41,787 nucleotides of DNA, taken from the IMG/VR virus record IMGVR_UViG_3300025759_000197, positions 1 through 41,787 of that record. The stretch is one strand, 5' to 3'. This stretch comes from a virus (lineage: Duplodnaviria; Caudoviricetes). Position 1 is the first letter of the stretch. Every line of letters begins with the position of its first letter. The notes under the pieces are model-generated. The model was not told the origin of the DNA and searched no databases. It saw only the letters and a program-made list of their open reading frames with translations. Shown here one piece after another: positions 8,722 to 16,099 of this stretch. The position numbers were made by a program, and so were the translations under genes.

Positions 8722-9134
8722 AACATACTAAAGAAGCAATTAAGAAAGAAGAAGGTTTCCGAATGGAGACTTATCATTGTACAGAAGGTCATCTCACAGG
8801 TGGCTATGGACACAAGATGCTAGAAGGCGAAGTACCACCTACAGATAAAGCAGGGTGGGATAAGTTATTTGAAAGAGACTTTGCTAAAGCTGTATCTGGT
8901 GCAGATGAAGTATTAAAAGAATGTCCTGCTGATATAAGTGAAACTGCAAGAAATCTTGTGGTGGAGATGGTGTATCAAATGGGTCAATTCGGTGTATCTA
9001 AATTTAAGGGTATGCTTAAAGCATTATCAGAAAAAGATTACAAACAAGCGTCAGTAGAAATGTTAGACAGCAGGTGGGCTAAACAGACACCTAATAGAGC
9101 TAACAGAATGGCTGAACGAATGGCGAATATTTAG
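8712..9134 (+). CDS. Endolysin, T4-lysozyme-like muramidase
   Basis: EEG..Y.C..G.LT.GYGH with E-x8-C-x5-T catalytic spacing, MVYQMG, EMLDSRWAKQTPNRA. Confidence 0.92.
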   Translation: MDIEHTKEAIKKEEGFRMETYHCTEGHLTGGYGHKMLEGEVPPTDKAGWDKLFERDFAKAVSGADEVLKECPADISETARNLVVEMVYQMGQFGVSKFKGMLKALSEKDYKQASVEMLDSRWAKQTPNRANRMAERMANI

Positions 9135-9463
9135 TAGAAAAATCTGTGGGGGTATACGTTATAATGAAAACCACAGTTTCCCCCACACGCCTGACGCGAG
9201 GGCGTAGAAAATGATTATTTTTCAAGTATATCGCGGCTGTCGTGCCTGTATATACGCAAAGGAGTTCATATCCTTGCACACATGGGCGTTAACTTTTTTT
9301 ATTTTTGCGTGTGTGAGAGATAGTCTGTTTTTTTGCTTTCTCTTTATCTATACGCACAGACACACGCAAAGCACCACAACAAACACCACCACAAGCCACA
9401 CAGAGCCACGCACAGAGCAATCAAGGGAGCAACGCAGGGGTTGGGTCATGTTGTTTTAAATAC

Positions 9464-9481
9464 TAAAGTTGCACTATTAGA
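9464..9481 (+). promoter_or_regulatory. Putative phage-RNAP promoter (phiOR-like position)
   Basis: TAAAGTTGCACTATTAGA, identical 18-mer at 16324; two-base variants at 26638 and 40883. Confidence 0.8.
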
Positions 9482-9584
9482 TGAGAGCAAAAGAAAAGAA
9501 TATACTCTGTGTATCTCTTTGAGTATCTCTTCAAGTACATCATCAAGTAATACATCAAGAGACAATCAACATTAATATATTAAT

Positions 9585-9740
9585 ATGAATAGAACTAACT
9601 GGTTAAAGACAGACGCAGGAAAACTCTACAAAGCCAGAACAAATAAGAATTACAGACAAAAGAAAAAAGAAGACAAAAAGAAATCTTTGAAAGTTAATAA
9701 ATCTTTTTCTTTTCACTTTCCCAAAGAACACAATCCATAA
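9585..9740 (+). CDS. Small basic protein (51 aa) in the T7 gene 19.5 position, not in ORF track
   Basis: MNRTNWLKTDAGKLYKARTNKNYRQKKKEDKKKSLKVNKSFSFHFPKEHNP*; follows the promoter; no clear SD. Confidence 0.5.
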   Translation: MNRTNWLKTDAGKLYKARTNKNYRQKKKEDKKKSLKVNKSFSFHFPKEHNP

Positions 9741-10063
9741 GTGATTTAATTAATATTCCTACATAATCCCATTTAATCCTTTAATCTCCCATAATTGCCT
9801 ATTTATAGGGTTTATTAACTATTTTACAGGTGCGACACTGTGTCAGGTTCTATTATCCACAAATACATATATTCAAGGGGAATGTTTATTTTTTTAAAAT
9901 TTTTTGATAATCTACAGGCTCTATTAGCCATTTCAAAAAACAGTGCCAAAGTCGGCTGAAAACCTGCGGATAGGTTTTCTCTGGGCTAGTTGTCTCTAGG
10001 GACTTTGGAAAATCCACTCGGAGTTGGGAACGACCTTTAACGAGGGTTAGCCACTCCAAAAGT

Positions 10064-10125
10064 TTGTGGTTGTCTGTATCTATTAGATACACTGAAGAGG
10101 CTTCGCAAAGCCGAAACAATCAACA
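10064..10125 (+). ncRNA. Hammerhead ribozyme, type III
   Basis: GUC site 10072-74; stem I TGTATC 10075-80/GATACA 10086-91; CUGAAGA 10092-98; stem II GGCTT/AAGCC 10099-10112; GAAA 10113-16; stem III TGGTTGT 10067-73/ACAATCA 10116-22. Confidence 0.9.
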
Positions 10126-10147
10126 ATCAACAATAGGAGTGAACCAC

Positions 10148-10318
10148 ATGAGAATTTCACATGCAGTTCAAAAGATACAAGGTGCTATCTCTCTGGCAAA
10201 GTTCAAAGACGAACAAGCCAAGAAGGAACACTTTGACACCTACTCCAAAGCGAAGACAAAGGAACAAAAAATAAAATTGTTCCGAGAAGCTATCGCAGAA
10301 GGTTGGGTTAGTGCCTAG
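10148..10318 (+). CDS. Early protein (56 aa), hypothetical
   Basis: SD AGGAG 10135-39 supports ATG 10148 rather than the track start at 10064, which would run through the ribozyme. Confidence 0.75.
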   Translation: MRISHAVQKIQGAISLAKFKDEQAKKEHFDTYSKAKTKEQKIKLFREAIAEGWVSA

Positions 10319-10469
10319 ACAATTAAATTTGTTTAGTGCTGAAGAGTTGGCGGACTGTTATTTACATTCAGTTGTAATTAAGAGAGTTCGCCAAGCTCTA
10401 CACAAAGAGAAACAGAAAAAACAGAAACTTGGTCAGGTGATAAAGTTTCCTATTAAATTTGTTTCTTAA
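10311..10469 (+). CDS. Early protein (52 aa) with QLNLF motif, not in ORF track
   Basis: GTG start; MPRQLNLFSAEELADCYLHSVVIKRVRQALHKEKQKKQKLGQVIKFPIKFVS*; TAATG coupling to the next gene. Confidence 0.65.
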   Translation: MPRQLNLFSAEELADCYLHSVVIKRVRQALHKEKQKKQKLGQVIKFPIKFVS

Positions 10470-10648
10470 TGTTTTACAGTCCAAAGTATTGGGCGGAGTT
10501 AAAAGCCAAACGCAAAGCAGAAGAAAAGAAACTTGAAATTGTTTCTAGTGCAGAGCAGGACGCAGAAGCCAAACAAGAACAGGCAGAGGCGGACAAGTTG
10601 GCAAAAGACAAATTCCACCAATGGAAAGTGAAATATTCTAAAATCTAA
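10469..10648 (+). CDS. Early coiled-coil protein (59 aa), not in ORF track
   Basis: MFYSPKYWAELKAKRKAEEKK...FHQWKVKYSKI*. Confidence 0.7.
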   Translation: MFYSPKYWAELKAKRKAEEKKLEIVSSAEQDAEAKQEQAEADKLAKDKFHQWKVKYSKI

Positions 10649-10710
10649 AACAATGGGCGGTGCAATATCCGCCCTTGTTCAATCAACAATCAACAACAAT
10701 GGAGACCACA

Positions 10711-10995
10711 ATGAACGTAAGACAAATGACAAGCCCAAGAAGCCACAACGCTGTGGCAAATCAATTCATTATTAACGACAACAATGGAAATCAATATTTT
10801 CAAAGTTATCGTTCTTTAATAGTAAAAAAATGTGCTGATGGCAGAATATTCCTAGACGAGAACACTTGGGACTATTCAAGAACGACAGGAAAATACAGAA
10901 ATGAATTTCTTGGCGAGAATACAGCAGAGACACGAAAAAAGATAAAAAGCGGAGAATACATTTTGACCGACTTAAACAGCAAGGCGGTGGCGTAA
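10711..10995 (+). CDS. Conserved phage early protein, function unknown
   Basis: SD GGAG 10701-04; ANQFII, FQSY.S.I, WDYSRTT.KY motifs recurrent in phage early regions. Confidence 0.8.
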   Translation: MNVRQMTSPRSHNAVANQFIINDNNGNQYFQSYRSLIVKKCADGRIFLDENTWDYSRTTGKYRNEFLGENTAETRKKIKSGEYILTDLNSKAVA

Positions 10996-11159
10996 TGTTT
11001 AGAGCAATTTTAATTGCAATAGCTTTTGCACTTTGTTTTGCTTTGATGTTTCTAGGTGTTATTATTTCAATTCATTTTAGCACTTGGCTAGGTCTAGCAT
11101 TAACAGCAGTGGCAACTTTAAAATTCTGGTCATACTTACCAGAGTTAAACCAAATATAA
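10995..11159 (+). CDS. Early two-TM membrane protein (54 aa), not in ORF track
   Basis: MFRAILIAIAFALCFALMFLGVIISIHFSTWLGLALTAVATLKFWSYLPELNQI*; TAATG coupling. Confidence 0.7.
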   Translation: MFRAILIAIAFALCFALMFLGVIISIHFSTWLGLALTAVATLKFWSYLPELNQI

Positions 11160-11350
11160 AACTTGAAGCGGTGGCAGGTCTACCGCTTTGAGATTTATAT
11201 TGCGTAAATAACTTGCGAGGATAAGCAAGGATAAAGCAATAAAAATCAAATGTTGTCTAGTTTTGCGTTAACTCTTCGGTGGTTCTTTAATCACAGTCAA
11301 CGCTTCACTAGACGACATTTTTAAATCAACAATCAACAAAGGAGAAAAAC

Positions 11351-11581
11351 ATGTACACAAGTATAGAAAATGTAAAACTAACTGAAGTTGAAACAGAAAA
11401 AGGCAAATGGAAAGGCAAAAAGTTTGTCAATTATAAAAACCCTATTGAGAAAAACAAAAAAGTTGTTTTTGAAGATGAATACTCAAACTTAATGGATATT
11501 GCTTCAGAAGTAAAACACGCTTCAGAGAGAAGCCCTCACAAAGTAATTAGGGTTAGCTTTGATGTAAGTGCGGAGTGGTAA
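11351..11581 (+). CDS. Early protein, hypothetical
   Basis: ORF track; SD AAAGGAG. Confidence 0.8.
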   Translation: MYTSIENVKLTEVETEKGKWKGKKFVNYKNPIEKNKKVVFEDEYSNLMDIASEVKHASERSPHKVIRVSFDVSAEW

Positions 11582-11585
11582 TTGA

Positions 11586-11756
11586 GTGAGTTATAAAAAA
11601 TACAAAATAAGAGATGGCGTTCACATACCAAGCGATAAATTTCGCAAAAATTGGGACGCCATCTTTGGCAAGAAACCAAAAAAACCTAAAAAAAACACAA
11701 TTACAAAAAGCAAAACTGACGAGGTTTTAATAACCGAAACGCCTTCTAAAAACTAG
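11586..11756 (+). CDS. Small basic early protein (56 aa), not in ORF track
   Basis: GTG start with GGAG SD; MSYKKYKIRDGVHIPSDKFRKNWDAIFGKKPKK...ETPSKN*. Confidence 0.65.
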   Translation: MSYKKYKIRDGVHIPSDKFRKNWDAIFGKKPKKPKKNTITKSKTDEVLITETPSKN

Positions 11757-11777
11757 GCGGCGTATTTTGCACGTGAA
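11700..11777 (+). ncRNA. Hammerhead ribozyme, type I
   Basis: Stem I GCAAAA 11710-15/TTTTGC 11765-70; CUGACGA 11716-22; stem II GGTT/AACC 11723-35; GAAA 11736-39; stem III ACGCC 11739-43/GGCGT 11759-63; GUA site, cut after A11764. Confidence 0.88.
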
Positions 11778-11794
11778 TATCGCATAAAATCTTC

Positions 11795-11824
11795 TTGCAC
11801 ATATTATGTGCGACAGGATAGCAT
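11795..11824 (+). promoter_or_regulatory. Putative sigma70 promoter with overlapping palindromic operator
   Basis: TTGCAC-N18-TAGCAT; perfect palindrome GCACATA-T-TATGTGC over the -35 and spacer. Confidence 0.55.
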
Positions 11825-13387: not shown

Positions 13388-13473
13388 GGATTAGTTCTAG
13401 TATGAGGATAGTTGATTAATTATGTTTATTAATACAAGTAAAAGAGACTGTTCCACTGTCGCATGGGTACAAT

Positions 13474-13514
13474 AGGATTTGCAATCCTCTGCGTAACCAT
13501 TCCGCCACGTTGCC
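13474..13514 (-). other. attP core: 5' half of tRNA-Cys(GCA)
   Basis: Minus strand GGCAACGTGGCGGAATGGTTACGCAGAGGATTGCAAATCCT gives acceptor 5' strand, D arm and anticodon arm with GCA; no T arm follows; directly downstream of int. Confidence 0.88.
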
Positions 13515-13639
13515 ATCTCGTTTATTTTATAAGTAAACACTCAACTATTCTCTACTACATCTTTAAAAAATAATCAAAGGACTAAACTTAATTTGTAAGC
13601 CATTCCTTTGGTGCATCAATCAACAAATAGGAGAATAAA

Positions 13640-16099
13640 TTGAAAATACTAGAAATAATGCCGACATACAAAGACCAACACCTAAATGAAACTATGTCTA
13701 AAGATTTAGGTAAAAATAGAACAAACAAAAGGCGTATATCCCATATTGAAAGAGGTGAAGAAAGTGTAACTTCCTATGGTAAAGTCATAGTAGCCAATAC
13801 TATACGACCTTTAGCTATCGCAATAGCAGAATGGGTAGAACAAAGTATTCAAAATGTTCATTCCAAAACTCCCATTGCTCTTAAATATATCTCCCAAGTA
13901 GACCCAAAGATACTGGCGTTGATAACTGCAAAGCATGTAATCAATACTATTACCCATACTAAAAATCTAACTGCTACTGCCATAACACTAGGCGGAAGAG
14001 TTGAGACAGAGATAAGTTTAAAAAACTTTAAGGCTCTTAATCCTGAACTATACGAAACTGTAAGAAGAGATTTAGATAAAAGGTCTTGGAACTACAATTA
14101 TAAAAGAAGAAAGTTAAGAGAAAGTGCTAAACGAGACAGTGTTATGAAGTGGGAAGAATGGTCTACTACTGAAAGACTACATGTTGGAATGGAATTGATA
14201 GGTCTGCTTATTGAAAGTACAGGACTTGTTGAAATCTCCCAAGAACAACATAAGCATAAAACTGTTAAAGTTATTAAACAAACTGAAAAGACTAAACAGT
14301 GGATTAACAATAGAAATGACTTTAACGAACTATTAAACCCTGAATACTTAATGATGGTTATGCCACCAAAAATGGTTGAAGATGGGAAAATTTCTGGTCA
14401 TGGATATTGGACTGATGAACTCCCAGATTTAGATTTAGTTAAACAAAAAGGTAAGAAATTTAACCAAGAGATAGAAGGTTTTTCTATGCCTGAAGTAACT
14501 AAAGCTATTAACTTAATGCAGGGTACAGCTTATAAAATTAATAGATTTGTCCTTAATGTAATGCAAAATGCTTGGGACAAAGGAATGTCTATTGGTGGTA
14601 TGCCACCCATAGAAAACCTGCCATTACCTAATAAGCCTCATAATATAAGTGAAGACACTGAAGAGGGCAAAGCCGCACTCAAAAAGTTTAAGAAAGATAG
14701 TGTCATTGTTCACACAGAGAATAACAGAATGGTATCAAAGAGGTTATTGTACGCTAAAATTATTTGGTTAGCCCAAAAGTTTGTACAATATCTAACACTT
14801 TATTTCCCACTACAATTAGATTTTAGAGGTAGGGCTTATTGTGTTCCTGCTTTTTTAAACTATCAGTCTATTGGTGGTGCTAAAGCATTGCTTAATTTTT
14901 CAGAGGGCAAAGCTATTACTAAAGAAAATAGAGGTGTCTTTTGGTTAGCTGTTCATGGCTCTAACATGTGGGGTAATGATAAAGTCTCATTAGAAGATAG
15001 AGAAAAATGGGCTTACGATAACCTAGAATGGATAAAAGCCTGTGGTACTGACCCAATAAGTAATAGACAATGGGAAGACGCAGATAGTCCTTTTCAGTTT
15101 CTTGCTTTTTGTGATGAATGGAAAAGATACCATGACACAGGAGATGGCTTTGTTTCTCATATACCTGTAAACGTAGATGGCTCTTGTAATGGGCTTCAAA
15201 TTTATTCTCTTTTATTAAGAGATAAAGTTGCAGGTAAATTAGTTAACTGTATTCCTAGTGAAACACCGCAAGACATATACCAATTAGTTGCTGATGAAGT
15301 TATTAAAACTTTAAAAGTTAAAGCTGAAGAAGGTGATGACTTGGCGAAGAAATGGTTAGCTTATGGTGTTAAGCGTTCTACTTGTAAAAGACCTATTATG
15401 ACAATTTGTTATGGGTCTACTAGATATTCTTGTACTGACTTTGTAGTAGAAGATTTAACTAAACGAAAAGATAAAGGTGAAATGCACCCTTTTGATGACA
15501 TGTTTAAACCTGCTACTTATTTGTCTAAAATTATTTGGTCAAGTATAGGTGAAAACTTAAAGTCAGCTAGACAAGGAATGGATTTTTTACAAGGCATAGC
15601 GAAAGTTATTGCTAAAACAGGTCAGCCAATACATTGGACTACACCTGTTGGATTTCCAGTATTTCAATTCTATCCTGAAATGAAAAGTAAAAGAATAAAA
15701 TCAAATCTTATGGGAGAAGTTATTATGCCTCAAATAAAAGAAGAAACTGAAGGTACTGACAAACTACGAACTCGTAATGCGGCGGCGGCTAATTATGTTC
15801 ACAGCCTAGATAGTGCTTGTATGATTAGAACTGTTAATATTGCAAAAGAAAAAGGTATTAATAATTTTTGTAATGTGCATGACAGCTTTGCTACCCATGC
15901 TTGTGATATTGATAAACTTAATGAAAGCATAAGAGAAGCATTTGTAGAAATCTTTAGTGAAGATTTATTTGGCAAATTAAAAAAAGATGCTTCGCTTTTA
16001 GTGGAAGACAAGGAAGCTGTTAAAAGGTTTCCTGAAGTTCCTGAAAATGGCGACTTGGAATTGGCTTTACTACATCAATCCAAGTTTTTCTTTGCCTAA
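13640..16099 (+). CDS. Single-subunit DNA-directed RNA polymerase (T7 gp1-like)
   Basis: DFRGRAY, VDGSCNGLQ (motif A), RSTCKRPIMTICYG (motif B), VHDSF (motif C); TTG start with SD AGGAG. Confidence 0.98.
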   Translation: MKILEIMPTYKDQHLNETMSKDLGKNRTNKRRISHIERGEESVTSYGKVIVANTIRPLAIAIAEWVEQSIQNVHSKTPIALKYISQVDPKILALITAKHVINTITHTKNLTATAITLGGRVETEISLKNFKALNPELYETVRRDLDKRSWNYNYKRRKLRESAKRDSVMKWEEWSTTERLHVGMELIGLLIESTGLVEISQEQHKHKTVKVIKQTEKTKQWINNRNDFNELLNPEYLMMVMPPKMVEDGKISGHGYWTDELPDLDLVKQKGKKFNQEIEGFSMPEVTKAINLMQGTAYKINRFVLNVMQNAWDKGMSIGGMPPIENLPLPNKPHNISEDTEEGKAALKKFKKDSVIVHTENNRMVSKRLLYAKIIWLAQKFVQYLTLYFPLQLDFRGRAYCVPAFLNYQSIGGAKALLNFSEGKAITKENRGVFWLAVHGSNMWGNDKVSLEDREKWAYDNLEWIKACGTDPISNRQWEDADSPFQFLAFCDEWKRYHDTGDGFVSHIPVNVDGSCNGLQIYSLLLRDKVAGKLVNCIPSETPQDIYQLVADEVIKTLKVKAEEGDDLAKKWLAYGVKRSTCKRPIMTICYGSTRYSCTDFVVEDLTKRKDKGEMHPFDDMFKPATYLSKIIWSSIGENLKSARQGMDFLQGIAKVIAKTGQPIHWTTPVGFPVFQFYPEMKSKRIKSNLMGEVIMPQIKEETEGTDKLRTRNAAAANYVHSLDSACMIRTVNIAKEKGINNFCNVHDSFATHACDIDKLNESIREAFVEIFSEDLFGKLKKDASLLVEDKEAVKRFPEVPENGDLELALLHQSKFFFA

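Follow-up and report, generated by a model that had tools for sequence, protein, structure and literature searches.

The early region at the left end of this phage genome carries a type III hammerhead ribozyme motif that probably acts as a constitutive processing cassette, yielding an early mRNA with a 5'-OH end capped by a hairpin, and in related phages this job probably falls to a long hairpin, located at the same place and cut by RNase III. In the course of events that we infer, the host polymerase would transcribe the leader and the hammerhead would fold and, in vivo, cut the early transcript after C10074; the downstream mRNA would then start with a 5'-OH and with stem I as a hairpin cap, followed by an open A/C-rich leader and the Shine-Dalgarno (SD) sequence, with the repeat of the leader serving as a ribosome landing strip. 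In related phages, the host RNase III would cut the long hairpin at the same position, and the product would be protected from 5'-end-dependent RNase E/J, with a gain in expression.

The stretch of DNA analyzed here (41,787 nucleotides, the window) comprises a whole T7-like phage genome, in which PHROGs assignments identify terminase, regulator, integrase, RNA polymerase, SSB, primase, DNA polymerase, portal and capsid genes in T7 order. Its RNA polymerase is 95.1% identical to that of Pelagibacter phage HTVC021P, and all 11 records that match window positions 9700-10700 are Pelagibacter phages. Judging from its sequence, the virus is an HTVC019P-type pelagiphage (Pelagivirus), a placement that fits the gene order, with regulator, integrase and RNA polymerase, and the tRNA-Cys attP core, and its host is likely to be found among the ocean SAR11 bacteria. 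The partial tRNA-Cys gene listed in Table 1 is likely to be the attP core, and the attP described for HTVC021P in the available text of bioRxiv 10.1101/410191 fits this fragment; a search for prophages in genomes carrying the integrase returned none. The available part of PMC12753301 describes early expression of the regulator, integrase and polymerase genes in HTVC022P, a relative.

Upstream of the hammerhead lies an ORF of 51 amino acids (9585-9740), matched on position and length, unaligned, to HTVC021P gp01, of which it is likely to be the counterpart, and no sigma-70 consensus promoter was found on the + strand from 9000 to 10075. The ORF that follows the hammerhead (10148-10318) matches no PHROG or Pfam family, and none of eight small ORFs downstream gave a Pfam match; an in-frame TTG at 10064 would read through the ribozyme, and cassette lengths vary among the relatives. 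In the same region, near-palindromes at 9830-9846 and 11793-11810, the latter overlapping a possible -35 element, share the motif GTGCGACA upstream of both left-end transcription units and are candidate operators for the MarR-like regulator. The left-end non-coding region also contains TTATCCACA at 9854-9862, imperfect in HTVC021P, which fits the DnaA-box consensus.

Table 1. Features of the early region, in window coordinates
Feature	Position	Strand	Remarks
Conserved structured leader RNA	10006-10057	+	Small hairpin and stem with internal loop; would go with the released 5' fragment
Type III hammerhead motif	10067-10122	+	7, 7 and 5 bp in stems III, I and II; core canonical; predicted cut C10074/U10075
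Stem III, 5' strand	10067-10073	+	Sequence
G-U-C triplet	ends at C10074	+	Sequence
Stem I	10075-10081/10085-10091	+	Sequence
CUGAAGA core	10092-10098	+	Sequence
Stem II	10099-10103/10108-10112	+	Closing pair G10099-C10112
GAAA core	10113-10116	+	Sequence
Stem III, 3' strand	10116-10122	+	Same as first repeat unit
Tandem ACAAUCA repeat	10116-10134	+	Units 10116-10122 and 10123-10129, partial unit 10130-10134
AGGAG SD, 8-nt spacer, ATG	10135-10150	+	SD 10135-10139; ATG 10148
Predicted hairpin over spacer and start codon	10140-10165	+	Forms before and after cleavage
56-aa ORF	10148-10318	+	Conserved in relatives (HTVC021P gp02), there behind hammerhead or long hairpin
Second cassette	10655-10713	+	GC-rich hairpin 10655-10674, repeat 10680-10696, SD, ATG 10711
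21-pair hairpin	11153-11201	+	Arms like T7 hairpins before genes 0.5 and 1.3; candidate site for RNase III; scored as terminator-like too
Hairpin form of cassette	11248-11353	+	28-pair hairpin 11248-11320, repeat 11323-11339, SD, ATG 11351
Second hammerhead, type I	11710-11770	+	Predicted cut after A11764; upstream of transcription-regulator/integrase block
Partial tRNA-Cys	13464-13514	-	Between integrase and RNA polymerase; matches tRNA of Pelagibacteraceae genomes
Repeat and SD before RNA polymerase gene	13617-13642	+	Without hammerhead

Hammerhead ribozymes share a consensus of CUGANGA, GAAA and NUH segments at a three-way junction, with a purine-pyrimidine pair closing stem II, and this consensus was used as the search descriptor. 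The window element has the core, the three-way junction and the stem II closing pair of a type III hammerhead, and it is the single match of the type III descriptor in the window. Dinucleotide shuffles of the window gave no match in 200 when stems of at least 6/5/6 bp were demanded and two in 200 at 4/3/4, and the minimum-energy fold predicted for 10064-10140 is the hammerhead itself. Sequence, fold and shuffles thus bear out the preliminary description, which had reported a type III hammerhead with all core nucleotides; the 5'-OH end that it placed at 10075 is the position predicted for a cut between C10074 and U10075, and the 3' strand of stem III is, as it had stated, the first ACAATCA unit in front of AGGAG. 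The hammerhead covariance models of Rfam give no match here, either at the gathering threshold or at E-values up to 10, nor in five related loci, and Rfam holds no other credible match at the locus. Taken with the covariation and the loop signature given below, the sequence and fold make the element likely to be active in self-cleavage, which would yield 2',3'-cyclic phosphate and 5'-OH ends. Contigs assembled from two RNA runs match positions 10092-10618 and 10136-10521 without error, and are given no weight, their starts being different and contigs being unable to show RNA ends; among the contigs listed for these two runs no piece spans 10074/10075, and three further RNA runs have no contig on 9600-11000. 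A contig that does cross the cut site, from a run of unrecorded kind, carries C10074A, with which the triplet is still valid.

Homologues were gathered in two ways: viral contigs scanned by pattern yielded 119 loci, 22 of them with a credible type III motif, and a scan anchored on the polymerase gene yielded 72 loci. Together these gave 29 distinct type III motifs once duplicates and three chance matches (L098, L188 and L192, with long unstructured arms or lying within genes) had been removed. The alignment holds 26 of the 29, three true matches with long arms being left out. In it, 91.8% of cells pair, against 78.3% after shuffling, and the covariation score reaches 0.358, whereas slid controls stay at or below 0.081. 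Compensatory changes occur in four of six pairs of stem I and two of four pairs of stem II; the overall number of pairs with such changes (8 of 17) was reached in 53 of 500 shuffles, and covariation in stem III is uninformative, its 3' strand being fixed by the search pattern and its inner pairs invariant. A 5' U in loop 1 and a 3' A in loop 2, which are a sequence signature only, are present in all 26 short-armed homologues, and the tertiary contact between loops 1 and 2 to which they correspond is described for natural hammerheads in the available part of PMC2632901. A long insert, of 75 nt in stem II or 64 nt in stem I, distinguishes the hammerheads of L003 (661-777) and of slot 1 in L116 and L124, which keep the core.

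The repeat to which the 3' strand of stem III belongs is widespread in these early regions, where it stands ahead of most early genes. In the window it also precedes SD sequences at 10680, 11323 and 13617, and 25 dereplicated early regions contain 123 repeat cassettes (a regular-expression count that may include a few false ones), 10 of which lie behind a type III hammerhead; at least two units are present in 75 cassettes, six of them behind such a hammerhead. Homologous hammerheads are followed by zero to two full units, and in HTVC021P, the closest cultured relative, a single full unit is present and the model gives a slip of 0.00. Beyond its first unit, the repeat is predicted to be a single-stranded A/C-rich leader. 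It seems likely, then, that the repeat serves as a general leader for translation and that its first copy was co-opted to form stem III, and hence also likely that slippage of stem III is a by-product which would at most lower the cut fraction.

These observations bear directly on the proposal of the preliminary description that cleavage may switch on translation of the first early gene. In the form considered here, stem III would mask a ribosome standby site in either register, translation would start upon cleavage and release of the 5' fragment, and the slipped register would tune the rate. Pairing can indeed slip, as had been suggested: in the folding model the ensemble at 37 C has 0.31-0.36 in a register shifted by +7 and 0.48-0.52 in the proper one, and at 20 C these shares are 0.20-0.24 and 0.62-0.67. 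Two full repeat units are present in 19 of the 29 distinct homologues (a count biased by the search pattern), the modelled gain in the window's own subgroup lies above the family median (1.3 kcal/mol in the window, 3.3 in HTVC021P and 5.0 in L116), and fungal and plant RNA viruses are described as using self-cleavage to drive translation initiation in the available part of PMC13725137. Nevertheless, the claim that stem III sequesters the motif before the first ribosome-binding site stands only for the first repeat unit, which is paired; the stem extends no further (to about 10126 with a bulge) and the SD lies outside it, 12 nt downstream. Whether this site and gene are the first is likewise uncertain, given the ORF at 9585-9740. 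In the model, the cost of opening the region from SD to AUG in the window falls upon cleavage from 9.2-9.4 to 8.0 kcal/mol, a value that stays high because the cleavage-independent hairpin at 10140-10165 covers the AUG, and both registers are equally costly to open before the cut (9.0-9.4 kcal/mol). The window's gain of 1.29 kcal/mol was equalled by three of 20 shuffles. Where homologues have an SD (27 of them), the change has a median of 0.33 kcal/mol and exceeds 1 in seven, the native 5' strand beats 90% of its own shuffles in four only, and the median modelled slip is 0.00-0.01; the distance from GAAA to the SD ranges from 8 to 23 nt, and repeats are equally common behind hairpins. In the folding models, therefore, the homologues do not consistently hide the ribosome-binding site before cleavage and free it afterwards, the idea that cleavage switches translation on loses its footing, and we regard a cleavage-gated switch as unlikely. 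As a point against the processing role, release of the 5' fragment may be slow, because the product duplex of stem III is modelled at -8.0 kcal/mol (37 C) and -12.2 kcal/mol (20 C). A pairing of the 5' strand with 10142-10148 against the start codon, seen in a short fold, was discarded when its probability fell to 0.00 with the downstream sequence included. A modest rise in expression after cleavage is plausible and would come through mRNA stability or insulation (the likely route) more than through release of the ribosome-binding site.

The processing role that we favor draws on the exchange of the hammerhead for a long hairpin in the same slot. Two cultured phages, HTVC121P, with a hammerhead carrying a long stem II insert, and HTVC105P, with a long hairpin (z -4.0), have host strain, upstream flank and downstream gene in common. 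Scans anchored on the upstream leader and hence independent of the ribozyme, which used three leader types and returned 27 loci, some of them near-duplicates, found a hammerhead in 10, a hairpin cassette in 14 and a short hairpin only in three; among distinct cassettes over all loci, 10 of 26 are hammerheads. Both the 56-aa gene of the window and a second gene family were found behind either type of cassette. Between 20 and 28 pairs are predicted for the alternative hairpins (18-21 in the hairpins of T7), enough for the helix of roughly two turns expected of an RNase III substrate; compared by eye, without a statistic, their arms resemble those of the hairpins that T7 has ahead of genes 0.3, 0.5, 1.1 and 1.3. 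These T7 hairpins, which the T7 record leaves unannotated, are taken to be among the RNase III processing signals of T7 early mRNA (R0.3, R0.5, R1, R1.1 and R1.3). The R1.1 signal and the sequence rules for the proximal and distal boxes of RNase III sites are treated in the available part of PMC1540722. Four Pelagibacterales genomes all encode RNase III and RNase E/G above the cut-off, and all have an RNase J-like gene, which scores above the cut-off in two. In some relatives (L004 511-580, L156 668-735 and L002 476-620), the long hairpin of slot 1 appears as a two-state structure, each half of which can refold as its own terminal hairpin, the 3' half making use of the first repeat unit. In others (L215, L216 and L219), slot 1 is reduced to GUA and, behind it, a hairpin like stem I; the catalytic core is lacking, and this may be the remnant of a hammerhead.

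The modelled 3' products open with a hairpin at, or at most 4 nt from, their 5' end in seven of seven type I hammerheads and three of three hairpin halves (the cut points of the hairpins being assumed), and in the model they continue into open repeat. Cleavage by RNase III leaves a 5'-phosphate and not a 5'-OH, and for this reason hammerhead and hairpin cassettes are not equivalent. RNase E and RNase J are established agents of 5'-end-dependent decay, and it is because of this behavior, and by analogy with the engineered insulator RiboJ, that the processed mRNA may be expected to be protected. RiboJ is described as raising mRNA about twofold and protein 2-10-fold in the available part of PMC6206723.

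Directly upstream of the hammerhead, the leader RNA at 10006-10057 raises another interpretation, namely that the hammerhead frees it as a separate small RNA or clears it away after it has done its work (in antitermination, for instance), effects on the mRNA being secondary or even destabilising. The leader is conserved and covaries, with compensatory changes in six of 14 pairs (seven sequences), and has no match in Rfam; at least three interchangeable leader types occupy this place in the relatives, and one of these scores weakly with the model of the window leader; a related fold scores in further relatives. A candidate cutting element follows the leader in 24 of the 27 loci, and glmS cleavage is noted to reduce expression in the available part of PMC6765202. 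Against leader release, the same cassettes occur between internal genes with no leader motif upstream, and the 3' products are predicted to be hairpin-capped; we thus consider it improbable as the main function. The leader was also compared with the topology of the HDV ribozyme, and an HDV-like ribozyme was rejected on these grounds, since its covarying outer stem begins after the putative L3 loop.

A second hammerhead, of type I, which the preliminary description had not mentioned, lies further downstream in the window, the 5' half of the motif overlapping the end of an ORF (11586-11756). Such a type I site is found about 1.9 kb before the polymerase gene in 20 of 25 early regions anchored on that gene, but the relatives nearest to the window by polymerase, five in number (HTVC021P, HTVC105P, HTVC121P, L132 and L133), lack it. 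Hammerheads of any type number none in three of these 25 regions, one in 11, two in seven, three in three and four in one. They are clustered and flank genes or gene blocks near integrase and marR, with two in the window and up to four in relatives, and more distant SAR11 and Roseobacter phages carry three hammerheads (types I, II and III) in three of eight left ends (HTVC031P, HTVC109P and Eistla); a scan of the fetched stretches of HTVC309P, HTVC120P, HTVC119P, HTVC011P and CRP-171 found none. The three early regions without any hammerhead, together with the three of 27 slot-1 loci that have neither full cassette, count against a processing role. The stem III arm of the type I hammerhead (CUAGACGG-type) is also seen in a family of free-standing hairpins in the neighboring slot (L005 2315-2360 and 2948-3008; window 11248-11320), and this sequence likeness suggests that the two arose from one ancestor or that cassettes have recombined.

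The patchy distribution of the hammerheads and the freedom with which they combine with different genes, along with the three loci that retain just a stem-I-like hairpin behind GUA, might point to near-neutral passengers that recombination at the common repeats moves about among early-gene cassettes, cleavage having little effect on fitness. Yet the core and the loop contacts are kept while the stems covary, three permutations of the hammerhead occur in equivalent intergenic slots, and every match lies on the coding strand, all of which makes this explanation very improbable in our view. More ambitious, and to be held only tentatively, is an extension of the processing role to plug-in cassettes of the early operon, in which three kinds of cutter (type III hammerheads, type I/II hammerheads and two-state RNase III hairpins) would all deliver one product, a hairpin-capped 5' end followed by open CAAUCA repeat and SD. 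Hammerheads would then escape host RNase III, their 5'-OH ends would resist RNase E/J, and the 7-nt slip would act, in this lineage, as a temperature-sensitive dial on the cut fraction; taken as a whole, this extension is rather doubtful.

The hammerhead class and its clustered arrangement are already known. A triple hammerhead cluster in an Agrobacterium tumefaciens prophage, beside marR and integrase, is active in cleavage both in vitro and inside E. coli, and processing of long phage transcripts has been proposed for it according to the available text of Perreault et al. 2011 (PMC3088659). Both systems have several hammerheads bordering small genes that lie upstream of marR and integrase; in contrast, the present elements belong to SAR11 phages with cultured relatives and swap with long hairpins in the same slot, and the term RNase III does not occur in the main text of PMC3088659 as available. 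An early polycistronic transcript of the haloviruses HF1/HF2 carries, according to the same source, a hammerhead variant 13 nt upstream of its first ORF, and a mapped 5' end lies at most 3 nt from the cut; this variant shares with ours the position close before an early ORF, but belongs to an archaeal virus and has a variant core, and the text available there describes neither a repeat leader nor an exchange with hairpins. The RNase III signals of T7 early mRNA likewise stand between the left-end leader and the first genes and have similar arms; T7, however, depends on the host enzyme and obtains 5'-phosphate ends, whereas the hammerhead is predicted to cleave itself and leave 5'-OH, and a hammerhead scan of the first 7.7 kb of T7 found none. 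RiboJ (PMC6206723, as far as available) also places a hammerhead between promoter leader and ribosome-binding site, so that upstream sequence is removed and a standard, hairpin-capped 5' end results, but it is an engineered construct, derived from a plant satellite RNA to which a hairpin was added, whereas the present element is natural and precedes an A/C repeat leader.

A literature search found no paper on pelagiphage hammerheads or on their exchange with RNase III sites, among sources accessible in part; Dataset S1 of PMC3088659, which covers ocean-survey scaffolds, may list these motifs, and motif searches of the Perreault supplements gave no match in files of which the alignment is gapped and was covered in part. 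The word ribozyme is absent from the available text of PMC12753301, bioRxiv 10.1101/410191 and the LUZ100 paper. As recently as 2019, a review regarded the role of bacterial and phage hammerheads as still largely undefined (PMC6765202, available part). An RNA-seq series of infection exists for HTVC022P (PMC12753301, available part), and this phage carries a type I hammerhead as well as hairpin cassettes. HTVC121P, with a hammerhead, and HTVC105P, with a hairpin, are cultured on one host strain and amount to a natural swap experiment, so that whether phage hammerheads do the job of RNase III becomes directly testable in a major group of ocean phages.
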